Assembly: GCA_963846575.1 (NCBI GenBank)
Contig: CAWJWJ010000002.1
Location: 1,184,001 to 1,248,000 of the forward strand
DNA from: an uncultured Nitrospiraceae bacterium
GTDB taxonomy: Bacteria > Nitrospirota > Nitrospiria > Nitrospirales > Nitrospiraceae
Length of the DNA stretch: 64,000 nt
Direction of reading: 5' to 3'
Shown here: one piece after another, positions 21,351-46,575 of the stretch
How positions within the stretch are numbered: the stretch's first letter is position 1
How the letters are laid out: every line of letters starts with the position of its first letter
Notes under the pieces: generated by a model
Seen by the model: the letters and a program-made list of their open reading frames with translations, nothing else
The model's database searches: none
Told to the model about the DNA's origin: nothing
Translations under genes and position numbers: made by a program

Positions 21351-24300
21351 ATGTGCACAATGTTGAGACAACCACCTTCCGGCAAGCGTCACACCGTGAT
21401 CGATATTCTTCGCGCGCGGGACTCCTCGACCCCCGCGCGCAGAGCCTATACGTATTTGCGTGATGGAGAGACCGACGAACAATGGCTTGACTATCACGAA
21501 CTGGACCGCCGCGCCCGGGGGATCGCGGCCTGGTTGCAATCCTATGGGGCCGCCGGCGAACGCGCCCTCCTGTTGTATCCTCCCGGTCTGGACTACCTTG
21601 CGGCCTTTTTCGGCTGCCTCTATGCCGGAGTGATTGCAGTGCCGGCCTATCCCCCCCAACGGGAACGGGGCATGCCTCGCGTGCTGTCCATACTCCAGGA
21701 TTCACGGGCTGCCTATGCGTTGACCACCCACTCCATCCATCAGGCCATCGGAAGGCTCTCGCCGCGCGACGGTGGACTCGAGCAGCTTGCCGGGCTGCGG
21801 TGGCTGACTACCGATACCGGCGAACCCGGCGCCGAAGACTCCTGGCAGCACCCCGACATCGACGCGGATACCCTGGCATTCCTCCAATACACATCCGGCT
21901 CGACCGGCCAGCCGAAGGGCGTCATGGTCAGCCATGCCAACCTGTTGCATAACCAGCGAATGATTCAGGACGCTTTCGGCCATACGGAACGGGACTGCAT
22001 CGTGGGGTGGTTGCCCCTCTACCATGATATGGGGCTGATCGGGAATGTGCTGCAGCCGCTGTTCCTCGGTGTCCCTTGCGTGCTCATGTCGCCGATACAT
22101 GTCCTGCAAAAGCCGGTGCGTTGGCTGTCCGCGATTTCGCGGTACCGTGCGACCACCAGCGGGGGGCCCAATTTCGCCTTCGATCTCTGCGTGCGCCAGA
22201 TCACGCCCTCACAGCGGGCTTCGTTGGATTTGAGTAGCTGGACGGTGGCGTTTAACGGAGCAGAGCCTGTTCGAGCCGGCACCATCGAACAATTCGCTCG
22301 AACGTTTGCCGGGTGTGGATTCAGGCGGGAGGCGTTTTATCCCTGTTACGGACTGGCCGAGGCAACCCTCCTGGTCGCTGGTGGGACCGCCAACGCTCCA
22401 CCCGTGACGCGAGAGTTCGATCAGTCAGGTCTCAATCTCCATGCCGGGACACAACCGATGGGGACGGGTCATCCCACGCCGGTGCTCGTAGGTTCCGGTG
22501 TCGCCCGGCTCGAACAACTGATTCGCATTGTCCGTCCGGAATCAAGCACCTCCTGCCCGGATGGTCAGGTCGGAGAGATCTGGGTCAGCGGGCCGAGTGT
22601 CGCGCAGGGGTATTGGGGACAGGAACTGGAAACGTGCGCAACCTTTATGGCCAGGCTTGCCGATACCGGAGAGGGCCCGTTTTTACGCACGGGGGATCTG
22701 GGGTTCGTGCACGAAGGCGAACTGTTCGTCACCGGCCGGTTGAAAGATCTCATCATCATTCGTGGGCGCAACCACTATCCGCAGGACATCGAACGTACCG
22801 TGGAGGACAGCCATCCGGCGCTCAGGCCCGGCGGGGGAGCGGCCTTTTCCGTCGTGGAAAGGGACGAGGAACAGTTGGTTGTAGTCCAGGAGATCGAACT
22901 CCGTGCCCGGAACATCAACCATGACGCGATCATGGCTGACATTCGCCGGGCCGTGACGAGACAGCATGAAGTGCCGGTCTTTGCCGTCGTCCTCATCAAG
23001 GCGGGGCATCTGCCCAAGACGTCCAGTGGAAAGGTCCAGCGAAGCCTCTGCCGCACCAGATTCCTCGAACAGGCCTTCGAGGTGATCGGGCAGGCCCTTG
23101 CCCCCGCACCATTACAGGCCGGCGACCTCAGCACATCATTCGAGGCGGTCAGGCGAGGCGGGGTGGCATCGGAAAGGAATCTTGACCAGCTCGTCACGGA
23201 GATCTGGGCGGGGGTATTGAATCAACCGAACATCGGACCACAAGACGATTTCTTCGCGCTGGGCGGCGATTCGCTACGCGGCACGCAGGTGCTGGCCCGC
23301 CTGCGTGAGGAGGGCCGGATCGAGGTGCCCTTGGAGACGCTGTTCGATTTTCCGACTCTGGCGGACTTCGTCAGCCACATCGGGACCAGGACGCCCGCTG
23401 CTCCTGCCGAGGACGGCGTCGCGATGCGGCCCGCTCGGCCGGAGGATCCACAGCCGCTCTCGCGGACTCAGGAGCGCTTCTGGTTTCTCGAGCAACTCTC
23501 ACCTGGCACTCCCGTCAACAATGTTCCCGTCGCGCTGAGGCTGCAGGGGCGACTCGATGTCGAGACCCTTCGCCGTTCCCTGCAGGAAATTTTACGGCGC
23601 CATGACATCCTCCGGGCCCGGTGCATACTCCGTGACGGTCGACCGGCACAGATCATCGCGCCGACTCTCGACCTTTCTCTGGCCGTCGAGGAGTTGATCC
23701 CGATAGGCGAAACGGATCCGGAGCGCCAGCTCCGGCAGGCACTCGATCAAGAGGCGGTCCAGCCGTTCGATCTGATGACGGGGCCTTTGCTCCGGCTCCG
23801 TCTATTCCGGATGGCGGACTGGGATCATGTCTTGTCGCTGACGCTGCATCACATCGTGACAGACGGCTGGTCGATGGGAATCGTCAGTCGCGAGTTGGCC
23901 GCGCTGTACGAGGCCTTTGTGAACCGCCGTGTATCTCCGCTTCCCCCTCTTCCCATCCAGTATCTCGACGTGGTGGCGGGTGAGCGCGAGGATCACCGGG
24001 AAGCGCTCTACAGAAGGCAGATCGAATATTGGCGACAGCGTCTGGAGGATGTTCCCGCCCTATTGAGGCTGCCATACGATCGGGCGCGGCCGGAGGTGCA
24101 GAACTATCGTGGGGCGCGTCACCGCTGGACGGTGGAGGCGGCGCTCGTGCGCAGGCTGCAGAACATCGGGCATCAGCAGCGGGCGACGTTGTTCATGACG
24201 CTGTTGGCGGCCTTCGACGTGCTCTTATCCCGCTACAGCGGCCAGGCGGACTTCTGCGTGGGCACGCCGGTGGCCAATCGAAACCGGATGGACTGGGAGC

Positions 24301-27110
24301 CGCTGGTCGGCTGCTTCGTCAACACCGTCGCTCTTCGTGCCGATCTGTCGGGCAATCCTTCCTTCACCGCCTTCCTCGCGCAAGTCCGGGCGACCGTACT
24401 GGGCGCACAGGCCCATCAGGAGGTTCCGTTTGAACGGGTCGTCGATGACCTACGGGTCGCGCGAGACCTGGGGCATACGCCGCTTTTTCAAGTGATGTTC
24501 CTGTTGGAGGACCGTCTCTCGGACCTGCCATCGTTCGGATCTCTATCGACCGGCAGGATGGAGGTGAACACCCGGACCTCGGTGTTCGATCTCACCGTGG
24601 AAATGGTCCTCGGTGCCGACGGCGGCCTGACCGCGGTGTTTGAATACAGTATCGAGTTGTTCGATCGCGACAGGATCGTGCGCCTCGCCGGACACTTTCA
24701 TACGCTGCTGAATGAAATCGCCACCGCCCCGGAGTCGCGGATTGGCGATCTGACGCTGCTCACGGCGCATGAAACCCGTCAGGTTCTCGTTGAGTGCAAC
24801 AACACCCGCGCGTCCTATCCGGAAGAGTCATGCCTGCATCAATTGATGGAGGACAGGGTGTCCCGGACCCCGGACGCCGTGGCCCTGTCCTGCGAGGGGC
24901 GGTCCTATACCTACGCCGAGCTCAATCGCAGGTCGAATCAACTCGCGCGCTATCTCCGTGCGCACAAGGCCGGTCCGGAAACTCCGGTCGCCCTCTGCGT
25001 CGAACGATCGCTCGAGATGGTGGTCGGCCTATGGGCCACTCTCAAGGCCGGTGCGGCCTATGTGCCCATCGATCCTGCCTATCCACGATCCCGACAGGTC
25101 GCGATTCTCGAGGACGTGCAACCGAAATTGGTCCTGACGCAACAGCAGTTCGCGAATGATCTGTCACGAAGCGGCGCTCCCGTTTGTGCGATGGACTCCG
25201 GATGGGCCGCGGCAGCCGGGTATCCTGACGGCAATCTGCCCAACCTTTCCCGTCCCGATAATCTGGCCTACCTCCTGTACACCTCGGGAACGACCGGGCA
25301 ACCCAAGGGGACCGGCATTTCGCACCGCGCACTGGTCAACCACAGCATTGCCATCGCGGCACGGTATGGTCTTGTCCCGACCGATCGGGTGCTCCAATTC
25401 GCTTCGGTCAGTTTCGACGTCGCGGCGGAGGAATGTTTTCCGTCATGGCTCGCGGGGGCGACGGTGGTGGTGCGGCCCAATGCGCCTCTGCCGGCATTTT
25501 CTGATTTTCACGCCTTTCTCCGCGAGCAGCGGCTCACGGTCCTGAACCTGCCGACGCCTTACTGGGCCGGATGGGTGGACGAGATCGACAGGACCGGCCT
25601 GGCGATCCCGGCGGAGCTCAGGCTGATCGTGGTGGGGAGCGAAAAGGCCTTGCCTGAGAGCGTCATGAGGTGGCAGCGGGTTGCGGGGCCCCAGATCGGG
25701 TGGTGCAATTCGTATGGACCGACGGAAGCCACCATCACCGCGAGTTGTTATGTCCCGGAGCCGGACATGGATTGGACTCGCGCCCTCACTGTCCCGATCG
25801 GCCGGCCGATCGCGAATGTTGAACTCTACCTGCTGGATTCCCATCTCCGGCCCGTTCCCCTGGGAGTGCCGGGAGAACTCTATATCGGCGGAGCCGGCCT
25901 CGCTCGCGGGTACCATCGGTTGCCGGCGTTGACCGCCGGGAGATTCGTTCCCCATCCGTTCAGTTCACGTCCGGGAGAGCGCTTGTATCGAACCGGGGAC
26001 CGCGCCCGCCGACGGCCGGAGGGTGAGGTCGAGTTTCTGGGCCGCGTCGACGAGCAGGTGAAGGTTCGCGGCCATCGTATTGAACTCGGGGACATCGAGT
26101 GCCATGCGCGCCAACATCCGGACGTGAAGGAGTGCCGGGTGTTCCTGGAAGAGGGCGCTCTCCCGGAGTGGGCTGCACTCCTCAGCGGCGTGAGCCTGCA
26201 GGACCAGGAACGGATGCTCCGGGACGTCGAAAGCGTGACGGCGGCGGAGGCCCAATGGCTTCACCGAGTGGAATCGGATGCGGAGGAACGGAGGAAGACG
26301 GTGATTCAGAGAAAACCGGAGTTCGATGTGTACCTGAAAATTCATCACGGGGAGTTTGTGACTCCGCCGAAACAGAATCAGCGCAATTGGCTGCTGCGGC
26401 GGGCCCTCGACGAATTTTCAGATGATCTCGTGGCGCTCGACGCGATCTCAAAACGGTTGGTTTCCGGCTCCGAGCGGGTGGGCATCGAACAGGGGTGGAC
26501 GGGGAGCAGGGCCGATTATACACCGACCGAGCTCATCATCGAAGGACAGCAGGTGATGCAGGATTGGGAAGCGCCGTTGATGAAGGCGATGGCTGACATC
26601 GCCACCGAATCCCAGGGCGACGTGCTCGAGGTCGGATTCGGAATGGGCATCTCGGCCTCCTACATTCAGGCTGGACGACCGCGTTCCCACACCATCATTG
26701 AGTGCAACCAGGATGTCATGCAGGCGTTCGTCGCATGGTCCGCCGGATACCCCGATCGCGACATCCGGCTCGTCCAGGGCCGTTGGCAGGATGTGGTCGA
26801 TGGACTGGGCCGGTTCGACAGCGTGTTTTTCGATACCTACCCGGCCAGTGAAGCTGAATTCGAAGAATCGGTCATCAACAGTATCAACTTTGCCGAAGCG
26901 TTTGTGCCTGCTGCCGCCGGATTGCTGCGTCCGGGCGGGGTGTTTACGTATTACACGAATGAAATCGACTCCTTCAGCAGGCGGCATCAACGATTCCTGT
27001 TCCAACACTTCAGCTCCTTCACCCTCAGCATCGTGCGATCACTGCTACCGCCGGATGATTGCCACTATTGGTGGGCCGATTCGATGGCGGTGGTCAAGGC
27101 GGTGAAATGA
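21351..27110 (+). CDS. NRPS 1: FAAL-ACP-C-A(core, Arg-like)-insert-methyltransferase (GAMT/Rmt2-like)
   Basis: FAAL motifs (LQYTSGSTG.PKGV, WLPLYHDMGLIG), GGDSL ACP and HHIVTDG C domain. A motifs run up to a8 (GRVDEQVKVRGHRIELG), then VLEVGFGMG...HTIIECN...FDTYP. Confidence 0.93.
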   Translation: MCTMLRQPPSGKRHTVIDILRARDSSTPARRAYTYLRDGETDEQWLDYHELDRRARGIAAWLQSYGAAGERALLLYPPGLDYLAAFFGCLYAGVIAVPAYPPQRERGMPRVLSILQDSRAAYALTTHSIHQAIGRLSPRDGGLEQLAGLRWLTTDTGEPGAEDSWQHPDIDADTLAFLQYTSGSTGQPKGVMVSHANLLHNQRMIQDAFGHTERDCIVGWLPLYHDMGLIGNVLQPLFLGVPCVLMSPIHVLQKPVRWLSAISRYRATTSGGPNFAFDLCVRQITPSQRASLDLSSWTVAFNGAEPVRAGTIEQFARTFAGCGFRREAFYPCYGLAEATLLVAGGTANAPPVTREFDQSGLNLHAGTQPMGTGHPTPVLVGSGVARLEQLIRIVRPESSTSCPDGQVGEIWVSGPSVAQGYWGQELETCATFMARLADTGEGPFLRTGDLGFVHEGELFVTGRLKDLIIIRGRNHYPQDIERTVEDSHPALRPGGGAAFSVVERDEEQLVVVQEIELRARNINHDAIMADIRRAVTRQHEVPVFAVVLIKAGHLPKTSSGKVQRSLCRTRFLEQAFEVIGQALAPAPLQAGDLSTSFEAVRRGGVASERNLDQLVTEIWAGVLNQPNIGPQDDFFALGGDSLRGTQVLARLREEGRIEVPLETLFDFPTLADFVSHIGTRTPAAPAEDGVAMRPARPEDPQPLSRTQERFWFLEQLSPGTPVNNVPVALRLQGRLDVETLRRSLQEILRRHDILRARCILRDGRPAQIIAPTLDLSLAVEELIPIGETDPERQLRQALDQEAVQPFDLMTGPLLRLRLFRMADWDHVLSLTLHHIVTDGWSMGIVSRELAALYEAFVNRRVSPLPPLPIQYLDVVAGEREDHREALYRRQIEYWRQRLEDVPALLRLPYDRARPEVQNYRGARHRWTVEAALVRRLQNIGHQQRATLFMTLLAAFDVLLSRYSGQADFCVGTPVANRNRMDWEPLVGCFVNTVALRADLSGNPSFTAFLAQVRATVLGAQAHQEVPFERVVDDLRVARDLGHTPLFQVMFLLEDRLSDLPSFGSLSTGRMEVNTRTSVFDLTVEMVLGADGGLTAVFEYSIELFDRDRIVRLAGHFHTLLNEIATAPESRIGDLTLLTAHETRQVLVECNNTRASYPEESCLHQLMEDRVSRTPDAVALSCEGRSYTYAELNRRSNQLARYLRAHKAGPETPVALCVERSLEMVVGLWATLKAGAAYVPIDPAYPRSRQVAILEDVQPKLVLTQQQFANDLSRSGAPVCAMDSGWAAAAGYPDGNLPNLSRPDNLAYLLYTSGTTGQPKGTGISHRALVNHSIAIAARYGLVPTDRVLQFASVSFDVAAEECFPSWLAGATVVVRPNAPLPAFSDFHAFLREQRLTVLNLPTPYWAGWVDEIDRTGLAIPAELRLIVVGSEKALPESVMRWQRVAGPQIGWCNSYGPTEATITASCYVPEPDMDWTRALTVPIGRPIANVELYLLDSHLRPVPLGVPGELYIGGAGLARGYHRLPALTAGRFVPHPFSSRPGERLYRTGDRARRRPEGEVEFLGRVDEQVKVRGHRIELGDIECHARQHPDVKECRVFLEEGALPEWAALLSGVSLQDQERMLRDVESVTAAEAQWLHRVESDAEERRKTVIQRKPEFDVYLKIHHGEFVTPPKQNQRNWLLRRALDEFSDDLVALDAISKRLVSGSERVGIEQGWTGSRADYTPTELIIEGQQVMQDWEAPLMKAMADIATESQGDVLEVGFGMGISASYIQAGRPRSHTIIECNQDVMQAFVAWSAGYPDRDIRLVQGRWQDVVDGLGRFDSVFFDTYPASEAEFEESVINSINFAEAFVPAAAGLLRPGGVFTYYTNEIDSFSRRHQRFLFQHFSSFTLSIVRSLLPPDDCHYWWADSMAVVKAVK

Positions 27111-27111
27111 C

Positions 27112-27762
27112 ATGGCGACCATTCTTGAACGCATCGACCGGCTTTCCGAGGCCCAACGCGCCTTGCTCCGGCTCCGGCTGGGAGGGACAGAACGGGCGAC
27201 GGCGGGCGAATCGCGCCTGGTCGGGTACATCGTCCCGCGCGGGGAGCGGAGGGACCTCGCTCCTGACCTGCGTGAATTTCTCCGCGAGCGTCTTCCGGAT
27301 TACATGGTGCCCGGTGCCTGGATCGTCATCGACTCGTTCCCCATGACCTCCCGGGGGAAGGTGGATCGAGCCGCCTTGCAGGGGATGGCCCGGTCGGCCT
27401 GGCCCGCGGAGTCCCGCGGAGGAGTCCCTCGAAACGATTGCGAGCGGGCCATTGCGGACATCTGGAAAGAGGTGCTCGGCCTGCCCGTCATGGGGCTGCA
27501 AGACAACTTTTTCGATTTGGGGGGCCACTCCCTGCTGCTGCCGAAAGTCCTCGCCAGGGTGCGCGAGCTGGCGCAGCGGGAGGTTTCGATGGTGGATCTG
27601 TTCCGCTATCCGACGGTGCAGGCACTTGCCGCCTATGTGGCGGGTGAATCGCGACCCGTCGAGGAGGGCGACAGCGGTGATCACGCGAAGGGCAAGCGGG
27701 AGGCCGGGATCCGCCGGATGACACAACGGCGGCGGAGACAGGCGGCGTTGAGGAGCGAATGA
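27112..27762 (+). CDS. stand-alone A-subdomain (a9-a10) plus PCP protein completing module 1
   Basis: RLVGYIVP, LPDYMVP and P(M)TSRGKVDR with the a10 Lys, then DNFFDLGGHSL. Docking-like N-terminus. Confidence 0.9.
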   Translation: MATILERIDRLSEAQRALLRLRLGGTERATAGESRLVGYIVPRGERRDLAPDLREFLRERLPDYMVPGAWIVIDSFPMTSRGKVDRAALQGMARSAWPAESRGGVPRNDCERAIADIWKEVLGLPVMGLQDNFFDLGGHSLLLPKVLARVRELAQREVSMVDLFRYPTVQALAAYVAGESRPVEEGDSGDHAKGKREAGIRRMTQRRRRQAALRSE

Positions 27763-30700
27763 CGAACACAGCGGAACAGGGTGACGGGAGTCAGGCCGGT
27801 GGAGGGTTGGACATCGCCGTAGTCGGGATGGCCGGGCGGTTTCCCGGCGCGCGGAATCTGGAGTCGTTCTGGCAGAACCTCCGGGACGGCATCGAGTCGG
27901 TCTCCACGCTCAGCCGGGAAGACCTGCTGGAGTCCGGGGTGGATGAGCAGGTCCTCGATCGGCCGAATTATGTGAGGGCCCGGGCGTTGCTCGATGACGT
28001 GGATCTTTTTGACGCCAGGTTGTTCAACATGACCCCGAACGAAGCCGCCAGCATGGATCCGCAGCAACGTCTGTTGCTTGAGTGTGCCTGGGAGACGCTC
28101 GAGCAGGCGGGTTATGACCCGGAGCAGTACGGCGGGACGATCGGCGTTTATGCGGGATCGAGCAGTAGCGGCTATCTATTCAACCTGTTTCCCCGCCGGA
28201 CGCTTCTCCAGTCGGCAGCCGACATGTCGGCGATGCTGGGGGTGGAAAAGGATGCCCTCTCGACGCGCGTCTCGTACAAATTGAATCTGGAAGGGCCGAG
28301 TCTGGCCGTGCAAACGGCCTGCTCGACGTCCCTGGTCGCAGTCCATCTGGCCTGCCAGGGCCTCTTGAGCGGTGAGTGCGACATGGCCTTGGCAGGCGGC
28401 GTGTCGGTCACGGTGCCGCAGAAAGTCGGCTATCTCTACCAGGAGGGCGGCATCGTCTCGCCGGATGGTCATTGCCGCGCCTTTGATGCCGACGCTCAAG
28501 GAACCGTCGGAGGAAGCGGCGTCGGACTCGTCCTGCTGAAGCGACGGCAGGAAGCGGAAGCCGACGGCGATCAGGTGCTGGCCATCATCAAGGGCTCCGC
28601 CATCAATAACGACGGCGCGGCAAAGGTCGGCTATACGGCTCCCCGGATCGAAGGGCAGGCCAAGGTCATCAAGGCCGCGCATCTGGCGGCCGGTGTGACG
28701 CCGGAATCGATCTCCTATGTGGAGGCCCATGGGACAGGGACTCCGATGGGCGATCCCATTGAAGTCGCGGCCTTGACGCAGGCCTTTCGGGCCTCCACGG
28801 ACCGCAGCGGTTTTTGTGCGCTCGGCTCCGTGAAGACGAATATCGGTCATCTGGATGCCGCCGCCGGAATTGCCGGACTCATCAAGACCATCCTGGCACT
28901 CTCCCACCGGCAGATCCCGGCCAGTTTGCATTACGTGCGATCGAATCCCGCGATCGATTTTGCACAGACTCCGTTTTATGTGAATGCGGCACTGAAGGCA
29001 TGGCCACGCGGTGATAACCTGCGACGGGCCGGCGTCAGTTCGTTCGGATTGGGCGGAACGAACGCGCATGTGGTGCTCGAAGAAGCCTCTCCTGCCGGCA
29101 GGGCTCAGTCCCCGGCGCGGGATTCCGGCTCTCAGCTCCTGGTGTTGTCTGCAGGGTCGGAGAGGGCCTTGAGCCAAGCGACGGACCGTCTCGCCGCGCA
29201 TCTTGGCAACCATCCGGATCTTTCCCTGGCCGACGTCGCGCACACGCTTCAGGCGGGCCGCAAAGCACTTCCCTACAGGCGGTGGGTGGTGGCAACCCGG
29301 ACGGCTCAGGCCGCGGAGTTGCTTGCCCGGCCGGGGCTTGCGGGTGCCACGTCCGGCCCTGTCGGCGGCGGGCGGCGGGCGGCGTTCATGTTTTCCGGAC
29401 AGGGCGCGCAATATCCGGGCATGGGGCAGGCGCTGTATGCGGAGCAGTCGGTGTTCCGCGAGCAGGTGGATCTGTGCGCCTCTCTGTTGCAGCGACAACT
29501 GGGGCGTGACATCCGGTCGATTCTCTTCGCGAACCGCCCGGAGGACCAGGACCTCATTCACCAAACGGTGCTGACTCAGCCGGCGTTGTTCGTCTTTGAG
29601 TATGCTCTTGCCCGGCTGTGGATGAGCTGGGGAGTTATCCCCTGCGCCATGATCGGACATAGCCTGGGGGAATACGTAGCCGCTTGTTTGTCAGGAGTCT
29701 TTTCCCTGGAAGACGCGTTGGCGGTCGTGGCTCGGCGGGGGCGGCTCATGCAGGACACGGTTCCGGGAACCATGCTGGCCGTTCCACTCGCCGAGTCGGA
29801 AGTAGCGCCGTTCCTTCGCGCGGGAGTCGACCTCGCGGCAGTGAATGCTCCCGCCCAATGCGTGTTGTCCGGCCATGAGGAGTCCCTCGCCGCGCTGGAT
29901 CAGGAGTTGACGGCCCGGGGCATCAAGAGCCGTCGGCTGCGGACATCGCACGCGTTTCATTCCTCCACGATGGATTCCGTGTTGAAACCGTTTGAATCGT
30001 TTCTTGCCGGCCTCACGATGCATCCCCCTCGAATCCCCTGGGTTTCAAATGTGACCGCCGGGTGGATTCACCGTGATCAGGCGGTGGACCCGCGCTACTG
30101 GGCACGTCATCTGCGCTCGACGGTCCGGTTTTCGGATGGCATCAAGACCCTGCTGGAGCAGGGCGGGCCGATCCTGCTCGAAGTCGGACCAGGCCGCACG
30201 TTGCAGCACCTGGCCCGGCGGCACGCGGGGCAGACCGGACTGTCCGCGGTGGCCTCCTTGAATGGAGCCGGACCGGCCAGCTCCGGGCAGCCTGAGATGT
30301 CCGCCCTGCTGACGACGCTCGGATCACTCTGGGGAGCCGGTGTCTGCCCCGATTGGAACGGTTTGTACGCGGGAGAACCGCGCCGCCGGGTGCCGCTTCC
30401 GACCTATCCGTTCGAACGGCAGCGTTATTGGGTGGAACCTGATTCATCTCATGCAGGCCGGAAGACGGAGCGGTCCGACAGACGCCTCGACATGTCGAGA
30501 TGGGCCTATCAGCCCTCATGGAAGCGATCAGTGTTAGGGGGAGGCAGCCACGCCCGTCCGCAGGAACAGTGGCTTGTCTTCGTGGAGGAACCGCGCGTCG
30601 GGATGGCCTTGGTGAATCACCTGAATACGCTGGGGCACCAGGTCACGACCGTGCTGGCGGGACAGGCCTTCGAACGGCGCGACGGCGATACCTACCTCGT

Positions 30701-32327
30701 TCGCGCCGATTCTCGGGAAGACCATGATCGGCTCCTGCGGGATCTGAAGACGCGGGGACGGCTACCCTCCAACATCGTGCAGGCCTGGACGATCGGCGAA
30801 GAAACTCCAGCCGCCCCTGCGACGGTGCAATTCAACGGGGCTCAAGAAAAAGGATTTTTTCATCTGCTGCTTCTTGCACAGGTGTTCGGACGGCGGCGCG
30901 GAGAAGGGTGTTCGATCCTGGTGCTGTCTCAGGGCCTTCACGATGTCACCGGTCGTGAGCGGTTGCGCCCGGAACAGGCGACTCTGCTGGCGGCCTGCCG
31001 TGTGATTCCCCAGGAATACCCCCGCCTGACCTGCCGCCTGCTCGACCTCGACGACCACGACGTCGCGCACACCCTCTCGGAGGCATCCTGCCACCGGCTG
31101 ACGGCTGAGGTCGGTGCTCCGGCAGGCGAGGCAATCGTCGCCTATCGGGGACCGCACCGCTGGGTGCAGACATTCGAACCACTGCCTCTGCCGGAAGGGA
31201 AACCCATGTCCGGCCTGTTGCGAGAAGGAGGCGTTTATCTGATCACGGGAGGGCTTGGCGGGGTCGGACTCGCCCTGGCGGACTACCTGATCCGCACCCT
31301 GCAGGCCCGCGTCATTCTGACCAGCCGGTCGCTGCCGAATGGTGAGCAACAAGAGGTGCTAGCCGGGCTCGAACGACTGGGCGGGAAGGTCTTGCCGCTT
31401 CAAGCCGATGTCGCCGATCTCCCTCAGATGCGTGCGGCGATTGCGGAAGCCGGGCAACGATTCGGGTCCATCCATGGGGTATTCCATGCCGCTGCGGTTG
31501 CCGGCGGCGGCCTCATTGATCGAACCACTCCGGAATCCGTCCGGGATGAATTCCGTCCGAAGGTCGCGGGGGCCTTGGTGCTGGAAGAGGCGCTACGGGA
31601 GGCCCCTCCGGAGTTCGTGCTGTTCTGTTCCTCGTTGACGGCCGTGGTGGGTGGGATCGGGCAGGTCGCCTCTTGCGCGGCCAATGCTTTCCTGGACGCC
31701 ATGGCGCATGCCAGCACGAGCGCACGCATGCCTGTCCTGTCGGTGAATTTCGACCGTTGGTCTCAGGTCGGCATGGCGGTGCAGGCCGAGGCTCGCATGA
31801 AGGCCCTGGGATTGAGCGACGAGGCGTTGGATGGGATGAGCCGTCGGGAGGGACAGGACGTTGTCCATCGGATCCTTCAGGGAGCGGCCCTGCCGCAGGT
31901 CGTGGTCTCCATTCGAGAGTTGTCGACCGTTGCGACCTCGGTCACTCAACTGGCCTTGGCTCAATTTCACGGGCCTGATCAGACGGCGGGACACGATGTG
32001 GCTCCGTCAGCGACCATCGCGGAGGGACAGGACGTGTCGGAGCAGGAAGTGGCCCGGCTCTGGCAACAGTTGTTGGGCATCGATCGGGTGGGGGTGGACG
32101 AGGATTTTTTCCGATTGGGTGGGGAGTCCTTGAGCGCGCTGCAGATCTTGAATCGCGTCCAGGAACGCTTCGGGGTCGAACTGTCGCTGAGGGATTTTTA
32201 CGCCGCGCCGACCGTGCAGGGCTTGACGCAGCAGATTCGCGGGGCACGCAGCGCCGGGGAACAGCCTGAAGTGAAACTCCTGCCGCTCCCGCGAGAGGCC
32301 CGGCGTCTACGGGGAGCCTCCGTATGA
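27759..32327 (+). CDS. type I PKS module KS-AT(malonyl)-KR-ACP
   Basis: KS: TACSTS, HGTGT, NIGH. AT: GHSLG and HAFH. KR: GGLGGVG. ACP: GGESL. Confidence 0.95.
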   Translation: MTNTAEQGDGSQAGGGLDIAVVGMAGRFPGARNLESFWQNLRDGIESVSTLSREDLLESGVDEQVLDRPNYVRARALLDDVDLFDARLFNMTPNEAASMDPQQRLLLECAWETLEQAGYDPEQYGGTIGVYAGSSSSGYLFNLFPRRTLLQSAADMSAMLGVEKDALSTRVSYKLNLEGPSLAVQTACSTSLVAVHLACQGLLSGECDMALAGGVSVTVPQKVGYLYQEGGIVSPDGHCRAFDADAQGTVGGSGVGLVLLKRRQEAEADGDQVLAIIKGSAINNDGAAKVGYTAPRIEGQAKVIKAAHLAAGVTPESISYVEAHGTGTPMGDPIEVAALTQAFRASTDRSGFCALGSVKTNIGHLDAAAGIAGLIKTILALSHRQIPASLHYVRSNPAIDFAQTPFYVNAALKAWPRGDNLRRAGVSSFGLGGTNAHVVLEEASPAGRAQSPARDSGSQLLVLSAGSERALSQATDRLAAHLGNHPDLSLADVAHTLQAGRKALPYRRWVVATRTAQAAELLARPGLAGATSGPVGGGRRAAFMFSGQGAQYPGMGQALYAEQSVFREQVDLCASLLQRQLGRDIRSILFANRPEDQDLIHQTVLTQPALFVFEYALARLWMSWGVIPCAMIGHSLGEYVAACLSGVFSLEDALAVVARRGRLMQDTVPGTMLAVPLAESEVAPFLRAGVDLAAVNAPAQCVLSGHEESLAALDQELTARGIKSRRLRTSHAFHSSTMDSVLKPFESFLAGLTMHPPRIPWVSNVTAGWIHRDQAVDPRYWARHLRSTVRFSDGIKTLLEQGGPILLEVGPGRTLQHLARRHAGQTGLSAVASLNGAGPASSGQPEMSALLTTLGSLWGAGVCPDWNGLYAGEPRRRVPLPTYPFERQRYWVEPDSSHAGRKTERSDRRLDMSRWAYQPSWKRSVLGGGSHARPQEQWLVFVEEPRVGMALVNHLNTLGHQVTTVLAGQAFERRDGDTYLVRADSREDHDRLLRDLKTRGRLPSNIVQAWTIGEETPAAPATVQFNGAQEKGFFHLLLLAQVFGRRRGEGCSILVLSQGLHDVTGRERLRPEQATLLAACRVIPQEYPRLTCRLLDLDDHDVAHTLSEASCHRLTAEVGAPAGEAIVAYRGPHRWVQTFEPLPLPEGKPMSGLLREGGVYLITGGLGGVGLALADYLIRTLQARVILTSRSLPNGEQQEVLAGLERLGGKVLPLQADVADLPQMRAAIAEAGQRFGSIHGVFHAAAVAGGGLIDRTTPESVRDEFRPKVAGALVLEEALREAPPEFVLFCSSLTAVVGGIGQVASCAANAFLDAMAHASTSARMPVLSVNFDRWSQVGMAVQAEARMKALGLSDEALDGMSRREGQDVVHRILQGAALPQVVVSIRELSTVATSVTQLALAQFHGPDQTAGHDVAPSATIAEGQDVSEQEVARLWQQLLGIDRVGVDEDFFRLGGESLSALQILNRVQERFGVELSLRDFYAAPTVQGLTQQIRGARSAGEQPEVKLLPLPREARRLRGASV

Positions 32328-37920: not shown

Positions 37921-38160
37921 ATGGTACAGGACGAACGCGAAGACACGACGATCTACAAGGTAGTGGTGAATCATGAAGAGCAATATTCCATCTGGCCCTC
38001 CTATCGGGACAATCCCCTCGGGTGGACGGACGCGGGGAAAACCGGGCTCAAGGATGAGTGTCTGGAATACATCAAGGAGGTCTGGACGGACATGCGGCCG
38101 TTGAGTTTGCGGAAGTGGATGGCGGAGCAGGCGGACGATAAGACGGCCTCCTCATGCTGA
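37921..38160 (+). CDS. mbtH: MbtH-like protein
   Basis: [13 protein letters not shown]...GW...[16 protein letters not shown], with a GAGGAG RBS. Confidence 0.97.
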
Positions 38161-39009: not shown

Positions 39010-40047
39010 ATGCACGATGAATCTCGCGCGGCCTTTGCCGCGACCGCGTCCTCTGATGCCGACAGCCAGGTGGAATCGCGTTTCTCGACGAGTTTCCTGG
39101 ATTCAGGGCGCCGGCTGCCGTTGGTCCTGACGGCGACCGCGGGGCGTGAGATCGGTGCGTTTCTGCCGGCGGCTCATCGCGCCGCGGAGCGGTCCCTCCA
39201 TATCCATGGCGGGCTGTTGTTCCGAGGGCTGCCGCTGGCGACCGCCTCCGATTTCGAGTTGTTCGTGAAGGCGTTCACCCCATCGATGATTGCCTATGAG
39301 TTCGGATCGACCCCGCGCTCTCAGGTACAGAACCAGGTCTATACGTCCACGGAGTATCCTCCCCATCAACATATCCCGTTGCACAATGAGCAAGCCTATA
39401 CGACCGAATGGCCGATGAAGATCTGGTTCTACTGCGGACAGCCTGCCGCGGAGGGCGGCTGTACGCCCATTGCGGACAGCCGCGAGGTGTTCGCGAGGAT
39501 TCCGGCCGCCATTCGGGAGCGGTTCATCCGGAAGCGGGTGATGTACGTGCGGAACTACGGCAACGGTCTCGATGTGCCCTGGCAGAAGGTGTTCAACACC
39601 GGGGATCCTGGTGCGGTGGAACGGTTCTGCCGGAAGAATCAGATTCTCTTCGAGTGGAAGGCGGATGGGGAACTCAGGACGAGGCAGATTGCGCAGGCGG
39701 CGGCCGTACATCCTCATACCCGTGAGCAGGTGTGGTTCAACCAGGCGCATTTGTTTCACGTGTCGAATCTGGAGCCAGCCGTTCGAGAGGCGCTGCTGGG
39801 CGCCGTAAGCGAGGAGGATCTTCCTCGCCATGCCTATTATGGAGACGGGACCGCGATCGAGACCGGCCTGTTGGATGAAATTCGGGAGGTCTATCGCGGC
39901 GCATGCGTCCAGTTCGCCTGGCGGCGAGGCGATGTCCTGATGCTGGACAACATGCTGGCGGCGCATGGTCGGACGTCCTTCACGGGCAAGCGGCAGATCC
40001 TGGTGGCGATGGCGGAATCGTCGGAGGCGTCGCAGGCATGCCGATGA
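39010..40047 (+). CDS. TauD/SyrP-like Fe(II)/2-OG dioxygenase (stand-alone Asp beta-hydroxylase type)
   Basis: YTSTEYP, PLHNEQAY, WFNQAHLFH and DNMLAAHGR motifs. Confidence 0.92.
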   Translation: MHDESRAAFAATASSDADSQVESRFSTSFLDSGRRLPLVLTATAGREIGAFLPAAHRAAERSLHIHGGLLFRGLPLATASDFELFVKAFTPSMIAYEFGSTPRSQVQNQVYTSTEYPPHQHIPLHNEQAYTTEWPMKIWFYCGQPAAEGGCTPIADSREVFARIPAAIRERFIRKRVMYVRNYGNGLDVPWQKVFNTGDPGAVERFCRKNQILFEWKADGELRTRQIAQAAAVHPHTREQVWFNQAHLFHVSNLEPAVREALLGAVSEEDLPRHAYYGDGTAIETGLLDEIREVYRGACVQFAWRRGDVLMLDNMLAAHGRTSFTGKRQILVAMAESSEASQACR

Positions 40048-43000
40048 ATGACGAGAGCGCCGTCAACGAGACGCCATGCACCGGCGCGACGGAAGTCGAC
40101 CAGTACGTCTTTCCGATGAGCTGTGCCCAACGCCGTTTGTGGTTTCTCTCGCAGCTGGAGCCTGAGAGCGCCGCCTACAACACGGCGATCGCCGTGCGGA
40201 TGCGGGGATGTCTCGACCGGGAGGCTGTGGCGAGTGCGTTCAATGCCATGGTGCGCCGCCACGAAGTCCTGAGGACGACCTTTGCCACGCATGAGGGCGA
40301 GCCCGTCCAGATTATCGCCGCGGAGGGTGCGGTGGATCTCGACGTGGTGAGCCGGTCCGGCGATCGAGGCGGAATCGAGCAGGCTGTTACCGAAGAAGCG
40401 CGACGTCCGTTCGATCTGTCGCGTGGTCCGTTGATTCGCTTGTGCCTGCTCCCACTGCATGAAGACGATCATGTCCTGGTGGTCACGCTCCATCATATCG
40501 TCTGTGACGGATGGTCGGCGCAGATCCTGGCGCGGGAATTCGTCTCGTTGTATGGAGCCGCGATCACGGGGTCGACGTCGCCCTTGCCGCCGTTGCCGAT
40601 CCAATATGCGGACTATGGAGAATGGCAGCGTCAGTGGCTGCAAGGGGCGGTGCGGGAACGCCAACTGGCCTATTGGAAGCGACAGTTGAGCGGCGAGCTG
40701 CCGGTGCTGGAACTGCCCACGGACCGCCCGCGAGCGGCAGTCCAGGACTCGTCCGGCGGCCGGTCAGTCTTTACCGTCCCTCCCGGGCTTGCGAGGGAAC
40801 TGTCGGCGCTGAGCCGACGGGAAGGCGTGACGTTGTTCATGACGCTGCTGGCGGCCTTCCAGGTATTCCTGCTCCGGTATACGGGTATCCACGATATCTG
40901 CGTCGGCACGCCGGTGGCATGCCGGACAAAGCGTGAGACGGAAGACCTGATCGGGTTTTTTGCCAATACGCTCGTCCTGCGCACCGACCTCTCGGAGAAT
41001 CCGTCATTCCGGGAACTGCTCGCGCGGGTCCGGGAGGTGGTCCTTGGCGCTCAAGCGCATCAGGACCTTCCGTTCGAAGAACTGGTGGAGTTGTTGAAGC
41101 CCGCCCGCGCCTTGAGCCACCACCCGCTCTTTCAAGTCCTGTTCGTCCTACAGACGGCCTTGACTCAGGCCGTTCGGCTTCCACAGCTGTCCGTCGACGT
41201 GCAGGAGGTGGATGTCGCGGCAGCGAAGTTTGATCTCTCGCTCGACATGGCGGAATCGGAACAGGGGTTGGAAGGAGCGTTCGAATACAGCCGCGATCTG
41301 TTTGCGCCGTCCACTATCGAACGCATGACGGACCAGTGGCTGCGGCTGCTTGAAGGAGTCGTCGATGATCCGGAGACACGGCTGAATGAACTGCCGTTGA
41401 TGTCAGAGGCGGACTACGACCGGAGCGTGGGGGAAATGGACGAGTGCGATTCCTCCGTCCCCGGCAGGGCCGGATTCGCAGAACTGTTCGAGGCGCAGGT
41501 CGAACAGAGTCCCGATGCCGTTGCGGTCGTCCGGCAGACTCACTCCATGACCTACCGTGAATTGAACGCCGCCGCCAATCAGGTGGCCCACGCCCTGACC
41601 GAAGCCGGAATAGGGGCAGATTCGATCGTGGCGGTGCTGGAGCCGCGCGGCATTCCCTTACTGACGATGATAGTGGGAATTCTCAAGGCGGGAGGCGTCT
41701 ATCTGCCACTTGATCCAGCCCACCCTCCGGCCCGCTGGAGTCACCTCATCGAGCTGAGTCAGGCGAGAGTCGTCCTGACGGCGGAATCATACCGGGGAGA
41801 GCTGCTCGGTGCATGCACCGGGCTGTCGGAATCGGGCGGCACGCCGGTGCTGACGATGGACCGGATCCTCGCCGTGCGCCCCGCTCATGGCAACCCGCGT
41901 CGGCCGTCATCGCCGGATCAACTGGCCTACGTCATCTATACCTCGGGTTCCACCGGCCTGCCGAAAGGCGCCATGGTGACGCAGAGTGGGCTCATCAATC
42001 ATCTGATGAGCAAGGTTGAGATCTTGGGATTGAACGCCGACACGGTGATCGCACAAACCGCCTCCTGCTGTTTCGACATTTCGGTCTGGCAATTTCTTGC
42101 CGCGCTGGTGAGCGGCGGCCGGACGTTGATCGTTCCCGATGACATTGCGCGCGATCCTGCGGCCCTGTTGTCCTGTCTCGAGCAAGGCGGGGTGACGGTG
42201 GCCGAAACCGTTCCCGTGCTGCTGCAGGGGATGCTGGATGCGCTGTCGAATTCCACCGTGCCCGGGTTGCATAGACTCGGATGGATGCTGCCGACGGGAG
42301 AGGCGCTTCCGCCGCAGCTCTGCCGTGCCTGGTTACAGCGGCTTCCGGATGTCCCCCTGATGAATGCCTATGGGCCGGCCGAATGCGCGGATGACGTGGC
42401 CATGGCTCCCATCATTTCGTCGCCCGCCCCCGAACAATTGTGGATGCCGATCGGCAGGCCTATCCGGAACGTCCGGCTCTATGTCGTCGACCAGTGGCTG
42501 GCGCCGGTGCCCGCGGGTGTTCCCGGAGAGCTCTGCGTCGGGGGCATCGCGGTGGGACGGGGGTATTTGCAGGATCCCGCGCGGACCGCCGTCTCGTTTG
42601 TGCCGGATCCGTTCGGCACCGTGGCCGGGGCTCGCCTCTATCGAACGGGTGATCGGGTCCGCCGGCGCGCCGACGGAAACCTGGAATTTCTCGGACGGTT
42701 CGATCACCAGGTCAAACTGCGGGGCGTGCGCATCGAGTTGGGCGAAATCGAGTCCCGCCTGCGCGACCTCCCGGACATTCGGGATGCCGTCGCGGTCCTG
42801 CGCGAGGATAGCCCGGGCCACAAACGGTTGACTGCCTATGTGGTGACGTCCGCGGCACAGGAGCATCAGACTGACCTCTGGCGGGCCGCCCTGTGCAAAC
42901 ATCTGCCCGATGCGATGGTGCCGGTTTGTTTCGTCATTCTGGAGGCGCTGCCCCGTACGGCCAACGGCAAGGTCGATCGTTCGGCCTTACCTGTCCCCGA

Positions 43001-46000
43001 ACGGGAGAGCAGGCGCGGGTATGTCGCGCCGCGGACGGCCGAAGAACAGACCCTGGCCGGGATCTGGGCCGACCTGTTGGGCATCGACCGGGTCGGAGTC
43101 GAGGATAATTTTTTTGAACTCGGCGGAGATTCCATTCTCAGTCTGCAGGTAGTCCACCGGGCCAGACAGCAACAGATTCATCTGACTCCACGAGATCTTT
43201 TCCAATATCAAACGGTGGCGGAGCTGGCTGCCTGTGGATCCTCACGGCAGGACCGGGAGGAGGCGTCTCGAAAACCTGCCATGGTCGGCGAACTGGTTCA
43301 GGAGGACACCCTCGCCATAGCCCGGCGTACCTGTCCCGATCTGGAGGATCTGTATCCGCTGAGTCCATTGCAGCAGGGGCTTTTGTTTCACAGCCTCTAC
43401 GCGCCGCAATCCGGCGTCTACATCGAACAGATGCATTGCCGATTGCGGGGAGCCCTGGATGGCTCCTCGTTCGCGCTGGCCTGGCGGCGTCTTCTGGACA
43501 GGCATGCGGTGCTTCGTACGAGATTCATGTGGCAGAACGTGACCTCGCCGGTGCAAATCGTACTGCCGTCGGCGGACCTCCCCTGGCTGGAACTGGATTG
43601 GCAGGACTGCCCCCGTCACGAGCAGGAGGTTCGCCTGCGAGAGTTGATCGAACATGACCGGCGGCTCGACTTCGATTGTGAACGTGCTCCGCTGATGCGT
43701 CTGGCACTGATCCACGTCGCAACGGACAAATATGAGGTCGTCTGGACCCACCATCACATCCTCATGGACGGTTGGTGTCTCCCGATCCTGTTGAAGGAGG
43801 TTCTGAACGACTATCACATGATCCGGTCCGGCGGACATCCGGCGCCGGTTCGTCCCTCGCCCTATCGGGATTATATCGCCTGGCTCCAGCGACCGGATCA
43901 CAGCGGTTCGGAAACGTTCTGGCGGGCCACCCTCAAAGGATTTACCACTCCCAGCCGGTTGGCTGATGACACGCCTGCCGATGCCTCCCATGAACCACAG
44001 GACCAGGGGCTGTTCACCCTGACGATCACGCCGTCGGTCGCTGCCGCGATCCGTACCAGTGCCCGGCGATGCCATGTCACGGAAAACACCCTGGTGCAGG
44101 GAGCATGGGCGCTTCTGCTCAGCCGGTACAGGGGTGAGACGGACATCCTCTTCGGCACGACGACCTCCGGACGATCGGCCGATATCCCCGGCATCGAATC
44201 GATGGTCGGTCTCTTCATCAACACGCTGCCGCTTCGCCTGTCCGTGCCGCCGGATGCGGTCGTCGATCAATGGCTGAGAGGGATCCTGAAACGGAATAGC
44301 GAGTTGCGAGAGCATGAACAGAGTGCTCTCGCACAGGTTCAAGGATGGAGCGAGGTAGCTCGCGGACAAGCGCTGTTCGAGAGTCTGATCGTGTTCGACA
44401 ATCACCCGACCGATGGCACGTTGGAAGAAGGTTCCTCCGGACTGGTCGTCGAGCAGACCACGCTGCGTGGACAAACGAACTATCCGTTGACGCTCAACGT
44501 ATGGCCTGGAGCTGAACTGACCGTGGCCTTCTCGTATCAACGGCCACGGTTCCGGGCTGAGGTCATCACCAATATCGCACGTCACTTCGAGACGTTGTTG
44601 ACGGCCCTGGTCGAAACGCCGCAGGCACGCCTGGCGGACCTTCCGTTGCTGGGGGCGGCCGAGCGGGCGCAGGTGGTGAAGGAGTGGAACCGCTCGGCGC
44701 GGGCCTATCCCACGGCGCGCCCGGTGCCGGCCCTGATCGCGGCGCAGGCGGAGGCGACCCCGACGGCCGTCGCCCTGCGGGCCGATGCCGGCGCGCTCAC
44801 CTATGGCGAGTTGCTGGCGCGCTCGAACCAGGTCGCGCAGCTGCTGCGCCGGCAGGGGGTAGGGCCGGAGACCCTGGTCGGGATCGCGATGGAGCGTTCG
44901 CTGGATCTGGTGGTGGGGCTGCTGGGCATCCTGCAGGCGGGGGCCGCCTACGTGCCGCTCGATCCGGGTTATCCGCCCGAGCGGCTGGCCTACATGCTGG
45001 CCGACAGCCAGGTCAAGACCGTGCTGACGCACGAAGCCCTCCTGCCGCAGCTCGGCTTTGCCGGGCCGACCCTCTGCCTCGACCGCGACGCGGCACTCCT
45101 GGGCCGGCAGCCGACGACCGCGCCGTCGGGCCATCTCACTGACCGGCACCTGGCCTATACCATCTATACCTCCGGTTCGACCGGCCGGCCCAAAGGCGCC
45201 GGGAACACCCACGGCGGCCTGCGCAATCGGCTCCAGTGGATGCAGGAGGCCTATCCCCTGACCGCCGCCGACCGGGTGCTGCAAAAGACCCCGATCAGTT
45301 TCGACGTCTCCGTGTGGGAATTTTTCTGGCCGCTCATGGTGGGCGCAGAACTCGTGCTGGCCGCACCCGGCGAACACAAGGACCCCGCCGCCCTGATCAC
45401 CCGCATCGTAAACCAGGGAGTGACCACACTGCATTTCGTGCCGCCGATGCTGCAGGCCTTCGTGGAGACGCCGGGCGTCGAGCGCTGCCGCTCGCTGCGG
45501 CGGATCATCTGTAGCGGCGAAGCCCTGCCGGCGTCCCTGCCGCCGCAGGTGGCCGGGCGGTTACCGGCCGCACGGCTGGAGAATCTCTACGGGCCGACGG
45601 AAGCGGCCATCGACGTGACCGCCTGGAGTTGTCCGCCGACGGAAGCCGTCCTGCCCGTGCCCATCGGACGGCCGATCGCTAACACGCAGATCTACGTACT
45701 CGACCACCAGGGCCATCCGTTGCCCGGTTGGGGTGCCGGGCGAACTCTACATCGGCGGGGCCGGGGTGGCGCGCGGGTACCACCGCCGGCCGGAGCTCAC
45801 GGCCGCGCGGTTCGTGCCGGACCCGTTTGCGGAGACCCCCGGGCAGCGGCTCTACCGGACCGGCGATCGCGTGCGGTACCGGGCGGATGGCGCGATCGAG
45901 TATCTGGGGCGGCTGGATCACCAGGTGAAGATCCGGGGGTTCCGGATCGAGCTGGGGGAGATCGAGCAGACGCTCCGGCAGCAGGCGGGGATTCGCGAAG

Positions 46001-46575
46001 CCGTGGTGGTGGCGCGAAACGAGGGAGCGGGGACGAGCCGGCTCGTCGCCTATGTGACGCTGGAGTCCGGGGCGACCTGTGAGGCGGCCGCCTTGCGGCA
46101 GGCGCTGGGTCGCCGGTTGCCGGACTATATGGTGCCGGCAGTCATCGTGCCGCTCGCGCAGCTGCCGTTGAGCCCGAACGGCAAGGTGGACCGGCGGGCC
46201 TTGCCGGAGCCGGAGGCGGAGCGCCAGGCGCGGACGGTCTATGTCCCGCCGCAGACGGAAGTGGAAGAAACCCTGGCGGCCATCTGGGCGGCGGTGCTCG
46301 GGCTGCCGGAGGTCGGCCGCGACGACAACTTCTTCGAACTCGGCGGGGATTCGATCAACAGCCTGCAGATTCTGGCCAGGGCCCATCGAGCCGGCGTGAC
46401 GCTGACGCCGAAACAGCTCTTCGACCATCCGACGATTGCGGCTGCCGCGGCTGTGGCGGTGGTCGCCGATGGCGATGCGCAGGGGGCGTCGACGGACGCG
46501 GCCGAAGCGTCCCGTCTGGCTGATGTCGAGTTGACGGACGAGGACATGGAGAACTTACTCGAAGAAATCGGATAG
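40044..46575 (+). CDS. NRPS 2: C-A(Dab)-T-C-A(Ser)-T, with a +1 frameshift at ~45723-45725
   Basis: ORFs 39903..46082 and 45733..46575 join if one C is removed. A-domain codes read by eye as DIWELTADDK and DVWHISLIDK. Confidence 0.9.

Follow-up and report, generated by a model that had tools for sequence, protein, structure and literature searches.

Within a 64,000-nucleotide stretch of an uncultured Nitrospiraceae bacterium (assembly GCA_963846575.1, contig CAWJWJ010000002.1, positions 1,184,001 to 1,248,000, forward strand; the whole stretch is called the window here, and positions are counted within it), one adenylation (A) domain of a nonribosomal peptide synthetase (NRPS) is divided between two adjacent genes. 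The first, NRPS1, has the architecture fatty acyl-AMP ligase (FAAL)-acyl carrier protein (ACP)-condensation (C) domain-A core-methyltransferase (MT), with ~330 aa between the A core and its TGA; its C-terminal end reads ...CHYWWADSMAVVKAVK, and after its second A core Pfam gave neither AMP-binding_C nor a peptidyl carrier protein (PCP). A single base, C at 27111, separates the stop (27108-27110) from the ATG (27112) of a small open reading frame (ORF) lying in the +1 frame relative to NRPS1. The 216-aa product of this ORF matches AMP-binding_C (aa 31-83) and PP-binding (aa 113-176) in Pfam, and the a10 lysine of the split A domain is its K83. An earlier sequence-only reading had placed a stop straight after the MT and the missing subdomain, with its a10 Lys and PCP, on a separate ORF 1 nt further on, and the coordinates and Pfam matches confirm this. 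The helical leader which it saw on that ORF is likewise predicted, with one helix at aa 4-9, another at aa 13-22 and then a flexible stretch. The features of the split module are as follows.

21351..27110, + strand: NRPS1, 1919 aa, FAAL-ACP-C-A core-(acidic helices)-MT resembling guanidinoacetate methyltransferase (GAMT), then stop
24849..26084, + strand: core of the A domain up to and including motif a8 (KVRGHRIE, aa 1571-1578), with pocket code DVENVGSIT
26085..26150, + strand: beginning of the A subdomain, a helix plus the first strand, encoded on NRPS1
26169..26264, + strand: amphipathic helices of acidic character (aa 1607-1638), a candidate for docking internally with the leader
26289..27107, + strand: GAMT-family MT with N-terminal extension
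27108..27114, + strand: junction TGA-C-ATG (stop, 1 nt, +1-frame start)
27112..27762, + strand: small protein, 216 aa, comprising leader, remaining A subdomain (LVGY strand, a9, a10 Lys83), PCP and basic C-terminal tail
27112..27183, + strand: leader of the small protein (aa 1-24), basic and two-helix; a candidate docking element at the N-terminus
27214..27369, + strand: RLVGY strand, a9 (LPDYMVP) and a10 (K83, 27358-27360)
27448..27639, + strand: PCP (Pfam), its GGHS serine being aa 140

The split between NRPS1 and the small ORF is real and conserved. A search of 61 genomes returned 16 full or near-full homologous stretches, the window's own included, and the arrangement of stop, single nucleotide and ATG was kept, at ~70% nucleotide identity, in 15/15 congeneric loci with the MT (the 19 other loci include four in which the MT had no match, which fall outside this count; one of the 15, L016, has frameshifts elsewhere). 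The small ORF thus has its own, conserved ATG, as the sequence-only reading had proposed. A strong match to the small protein was present in 16 of the 39 genomes of the genus, a figure that includes a fused form in genome G029 and misses the frameshifted G023, and a protein of ~215 aa occurs in about 50 database clusters at near-full coverage. The junction at 27105-27115 was also checked against assembled contigs, rather than raw reads, from 4 of 12 sequencing runs. A 251-nt soil-metagenome contig (run X2, contig depth 2) aligns without gaps to 27065-27315, a single base being mismatched; in runs X1, X3 and X4 the junction was not bridged under a 31-base rule, and no sequencing run contained as much as half of the window's words.

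These data bear on two readings that would do away with the split. A single gene could seem broken in two if the assembly were wrong by 1 nt within the AAA run, and it probably does contain indel errors, since there is an apparent frameshift within an A domain of NRPS2, near 45735 in the same window. Such an error would, however, have to contend with a junction common to 15/15 congeners, with a run X2 contig that crosses it without a gap, and with the ~50 database clusters that hold a protein of this length; we give it next to no credence, and the congener junctions and the gap-free contig rule it out. Alternatively, one fused protein might be made at AAA-TGA-C by programmed +1 frameshifting or by read-through, a reading favoured by the constancy of the 1-nt spacing within Nitrospira and by the fact that TGA-C is a weak stop context, as in prfB. 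Yet in 12 of the 15 congeners the codon ahead of the stop is AAG, which is unable to re-pair in +1, the spacer is G in two of the 15, the gap from the stop to the first possible start ranges from -4 to 157 nt outside Nitrospira, and the ATG of the small ORF is conserved. A frameshift is therefore highly improbable, the variation in codon and spacing ruling it out.

Turning to wider distribution, a search of GTDB with the insert gave 71 loci, which were classed with profiles made from the window's own domains; many of the Nitrospira loci among them overlap the congener set and are kin. The full two-protein split was found in 36/71 loci from five phyla (Nitrospirota, Acidobacteriota, Nostoc, Kofleriaceae, Thermodesulfobacteriota and Massilia). 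Three further loci have the small ORF with a contig edge upstream, one is a frameshifted assembly that retains the junction, and two are cut within the MT. Homologous clusters therefore keep the split, across congeners and five phyla, in agreement with the evolved fission of the sequence-only reading. That reading did not extend to a three-gene form, with A core, MT and subdomain-PCP each on its own gene, which we found in 10/71 loci, all actinomycete (L071, L074, L076, L077, L079, L080, L082-L084 and L088). In these the A-core protein stops just past its helical tail, and the separate MT begins at the same point as free-standing MTs do. A continuous A-MT-subdomain form was seen in none of the 71 loci.

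A second set, the best 120 of 258 proteins, restricted to 474-2000 aa, gave a similar picture: in 118/120 of these long homologues the last MT ends no more than 14 residues from the C-terminus, and the remaining two, P0121 and P0122, are continuous A core-MT-MT-subdomain-PCP-C proteins. These two and P0156 and P0157, which end in a stop, carry tandem GAMT-like MTs after a8, making double methylation possible. PF27704 is the precomputed database annotation on these proteins. In an MT tree (FastTree, no outgroup, 65 chosen rows) the continuous forms adjoin a double-MT split form, among split and stand-alone forms, in an arrangement that does not fix the order of events. Other variants depart further from this layout. 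In L017 (G029:C34:257788-261380; the G029 genome is 84% complete) the same module has its A domain and PCP fused, with MT, acidic helices and leader all absent; since the G029 A core nests in the split-form clade with an SH-aLRT of 100 (quick tree, 24 A cores), a secondary re-fusion is suggested. In L042 the split is present and both leader and acidic helices are absent. In L026:9001-14247 the small protein is in frame with the downstream polyketide synthase (PKS), either a real fusion or an assembly error. As for splits that lack a GAMT-like MT, for which there was no dedicated survey, the frames of <300 aa among the matches in five genomes were the known small proteins only.

The two proteins very probably form one working A domain, with adenylation and PCP loading needing both. 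K83 is invariant in 28/28 aligned two-protein cases, and residues G82, P62, P67 and P77 of the small protein are also invariant outside the loci that lack the lysine. These loci are five of the ten three-gene ones, and the same five have no recognisable a3, a5, a7 or a8 in the A core; the other five retain the a10 Lys together with a3, a5 and a7. To judge from sequence, this joint loss of A core and lysine fits a coupled function. The five Lys-less loci keep MT and PCP, and their module may be loaded from elsewhere. It could be argued from this retained PCP that the small protein is a carrier only, with a vestigial subdomain, and that either the core by itself or a different A domain loads its PCP. 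This is improbable, given that the A cores of those five loci are dead, that the five small-protein residues are invariant elsewhere, and that Crz1.2, from the split A domain of corallorazine biosynthesis, was inactive alone according to the accessible part of its report (PMC11342130). Combined with that in vitro precedent, the invariant lysine and the joint decay make it very probable that catalysis needs trans-complementation, as the sequence-only reading had supposed.

The insert itself is of a kind that the sequence-only reading missed. Searched against PDB, it matched four GAMT sequences only (E 8.8e-27, ~31% identity), TioS (5wmm) not being among the matches, and GAMT also gave the top Foldseek matches to its predicted fold (TM 0.77 over the target). 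Yeast Rmt2 is kin to GAMT. The NRPS1 MT, ~270 aa long, is not of the type I backbone N-MT kind; no NCBIfam family matched it above cut-off, and local Pfam gave no MT match on NRPS1. Its Glu (aa 1740) aligns with E45 of rat GAMT and its Asp (aa 1828) with D134, the acidic guanidino-site residues of that enzyme; both positions, also numbered E178 and D266, are invariant in 28/28 aligned MTs. In the accessible text of the respective reports, D134 is the catalytic base of GAMT (PMC12471008) and the product of Rmt2 is delta-N-methylarginine (PMC10265986). As for the substrate, the best single-module PDB match of the A core was ApnA A1 (401 bits, against 325 for the next). ApnA A1 activates Arg and Tyr, and the pocket codes, DVENVGSIT in NRPS1 and DVESIGVIA in ApnA A1, show a likeness only, compared at D235/E239. 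Our literature search, with subscription papers mostly outside it, found no GAMT-type NRPS MT, and a search for N-delta-methylarginine natural products found nothing relevant; PMC13505331, in its accessible part, concerns beta-methylarginine.

How might the two halves meet? The leader is net positive in 28/28 aligned small proteins, while the acidic helices of NRPS1 (aa 1607-1638), helical in the structure model and likely partners that the sequence-only reading had passed over, are net negative in 25/28. Profiles of both elements were scanned over 282 long ORFs and proteins. With a threshold of at least 6 bits, all six off-target matches of the leader profile lay ahead of the first domain or in the first 31 residues of NRPS subunits, although two of the six may be one protein. 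The resemblance of the leader to NRPS N-terminal docking helices, proposed before, goes as far as the profile finding NRPS N-termini, and a docking role is plausible but weakly supported. The particular likeness to the start of NRPS4 is weak: that N-terminus scores 5.1 bits against the leader profile and gave no match at 8 bits in the genome scan. Modelling of the two halves as a complex, also proposed before, scored 0.58 against 0.00 for the best control, with contact agreement between runs of at least 96% and partner pLDDT of at least 75. The same mark was reached by 116/157 solved pairs and by 2/215 mismatched pairs, and at scores of 0.60 or less by 18 solved pairs and both mismatches, so that the prediction lends weak support to the complex.

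Taken together, the data favour, somewhat, a view in which leader and acidic helices dock with each other much as helices at the ends of subunits do, but within the A subdomain. The alternative is that the halves rejoin mainly via the beta-sheet of the subdomain, the helices serving as spacers or a structural clasp and not as transplanted docking domains. For this speak L042, which is split with neither leader nor acidic helices, the failure of the leader profile to match docking domains in PDB, the faint internal leader (1.4 bits) of the continuous P0121, and the legend of Fig. S3 in the corallorazine report (PMC11342130, accessible in part), by which the A-domain share of Crz2 lies within aa 1-65, leaving little space for a leader. 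On the other hand, the opposite charges of the two elements are kept across five phyla, both are missing jointly from L042 as well as from the re-fused L017, and NRPS N-termini are what the leader profile picks out. We consider rejoining by the beta-sheet unlikely, if still worth entertaining.

The sequence order is A core and first subdomain strand on NRPS1, acidic helices, and a GAMT-type MT ending at a natural C-terminus. It is fairly likely overall that module 1 of a lipopeptide siderophore line would be a heterodimer, combining the docking pair with arginine and methylation chemistry: leader and acidic helices would pair inside the A subdomain so that the halves rejoin around the MT. We lean slightly towards a chemistry in which the A domain would load arginine and the MT would methylate its guanidino group at the delta nitrogen, in the way that GAMT and yeast Rmt2 act on their own substrates; the C domain would acylate it with the fatty acid from FAAL-ACP, and the PKS would extend it to a methylated 4-amino-7-guanidino-3-hydroxyheptanoate, as in the variochelins. 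It is likely that the arrangement arose when an MT gene that had stood alone was inserted into the a8-a9 region, bringing its own stop codon. More tentatively, the family may represent a widespread, undescribed NRPS design, in which a portable helical docking pair before the LVAY strand allows two or three proteins to make up an A domain, while a new type of MT, which makes N-delta-methylarginine on the carrier, occupies the gap.

Several observations weigh against this account. The pocket codes differ outside Nitrospira, and the GAMT-like MT stands free, with no split A domain, in 19/71 GTDB loci. The split is not obligatory, given the continuous P0121 and P0122; it is the rule and not a necessity, because 118/120 long homologues end after the MT and 2/120 are continuous. 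Of the five distinct off-target matches of the acidic-helix profile only three are C-terminal, two being internal, and in strict form the profile matched just 71/120 long homologues; the leader profile found no solved docking domain in PDB (6TRP included), only repeats and chance matches. The complex prediction returned no contacts, and its pass may reflect likeness to solved A domains. The Lys-less three-gene loci, finally, are close kin and perhaps record one or two events. As to the free-standing GAMT-like MTs themselves, they lie mostly beside NRPS/PKS genes (L048, L053-L055, L057, L061, L065-L069, L072, L073, L075, L078, L081, L085, L087 and L091).

The module belongs to a large NRPS/PKS cluster of siderophore type, which includes genes for iron uptake and regulation and spans 12383-64000 of the window. 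Judged by gene content, the cluster is a siderophore cluster: it encodes FecI/FecR, a TonB receptor, PepSY, Fur, an ABC exporter, a class III aminotransferase, a penicillin-amidase-family protein, a thioesterase, two TauD enzymes and one MbtH protein. NRPS2 switches frame in its second A domain (39903-46082, then 45733-46575; window 45700-45760), probably through an assembly error. Two further features concern the module.

27759..32327, + strand: PKS module, ketosynthase (KS)-acyltransferase (AT)-ketoreductase (KR)-ACP, downstream of the small ORF
37927..38160, + strand: MbtH-like protein, the sole PF03621 match in the genome

By analogy with the variochelin pathway, this PKS is the likely acceptor of the acyl-aminoacyl PCP. 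The start of the cluster is common to about 17/39 genomes of the Nitrospira genus, and Nitrospira defluvii (L024) shares it; a search for literature on Nitrospira siderophores found no specific paper. The likely product would be a variochelin-like Nitrospira siderophore with N-delta-methylarginine.

If the proposal holds, it would provide a natural plug-in cut site inside A domains, which with its helix pair could be used for NRPS engineering, and a side-chain N-methylating M type beyond types I-VI. Split A domains have so far been represented by one published case, with no described interface; dozens of natural examples from five phyla, together with three-gene, re-fused and decayed relatives, make assembly and origin directly testable. 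A methylarginine-derived siderophore is predicted for about 17/39 genomes of the genus, and product predictions would overlook its methyl group because local Pfam leaves the MT on NRPS1 unmarked.

Variochelin is the closest match for the assembly line. In the accessible text of its report (PMC10999976), Arg is extended by a PKS in a pathway that runs from fatty acyl through Arg and KS-AT-KR to NRPS modules, with TauD hydroxylases. Here, too, a siderophore cluster has fatty acyl, amino acid and KS-AT-KR in this order; guanidino methylation and a split A domain are not mentioned in that part of the report. With GAMT (PDB 1xcj, 3orh) the NRPS1 MT shares a GFGM motif for S-adenosylmethionine (SAM), and it differs in an extra N-terminal extension of ~60 aa and in that MTs of its family are fused to or lie beside NRPS genes; Rmt2 was compared through its described activity and not by alignment. 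Helical docking domains (class 2 PKS, double-helix pair and PAX three-helix types; PMC9113145, accessible part) resemble the candidate pair in being short, amphipathic and oppositely charged helices where two proteins meet. As described there, they join a carrier with a KS or C domain, or whole domains, at chain ends, whereas the NRPS1 junction lies inside an A subdomain, with an acidic partner that sits internally, 280 aa short of the C-terminus. PAX-type docking sets a single-helix N-terminal element in a two-helix C-terminal one, while the leader here is predicted as two helices.

Among interrupted A domains, described in Lundy 2020 (PMC8341866) as families 1-7 with M types I-VI (backbone N- or side-chain O/S-methylating MTs), the A8-M-A9 families 1, 2a, 2b and 5 likewise have a class I SAM-dependent MT between a8 and a9. 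The words 'guanidino' and 'arginine' are absent from the main text of that paper. Classical a8-a9 inserts lie within the A domain and follow its L(V/A/I)(A/G)(Y/F) strand (PMC8341866), whereas here the break precedes this strand, which is carried by the small protein, and resumption in a single polypeptide was found in 0/71 loci and 2/120 long homologues. L041 combines both sites, a pre-strand break and then a second MT after RLVAY: its second protein (L041:9042-10910) reads leader, RLVAY, further MT, a9, a10, PCP, as a split plus interrupted module.

The nearest relative is the corallorazine system of Corallococcus coralloides B035, the only split A domain returned by our literature search (subscription papers lay mostly outside it, and unseen supplements and figures may bear on this). 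In the accessible part of its report (PMC11342130), the A domain is split over the adjacent genes of Crz1 and Crz2, Crz1 ending in an MT after a8 and a9-a10-thiolation (T) domain lying on crz2; Gly was activated in vitro only with Crz1 and Crz2 mixed, and the authors, calling it the first report of a split A domain, suggested it for engineering. The central idea of the sequence-only reading, a split and trans-complemented A domain, was thus already published, and the novelty and engineering split point that it implied were anticipated there in 2024 (PMC11342130). In NRPS1, too, an MT after a8 ends in a stop codon, and a9, a10 and T domain follow on the next ORF. As far as the accessible part of the report describes them, the MT of Crz1 is a type I backbone N-MT, its A domain is for Gly, and a reductase terminates Crz2; NRPS1 has a GAMT-like MT and an Arg-like pocket, and the 216-aa protein would pass its load on to a PKS. 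That the cut site also differs, the LVGY strand and leader being on the small protein here, rests on the Fig. S3 legend and the Lundy boundary rule and not on the Crz sequences. New beyond corallorazine are the GAMT-like MT, the Arg-like pocket, the pre-LVAY cut and the pair of acidic helices and basic leader.

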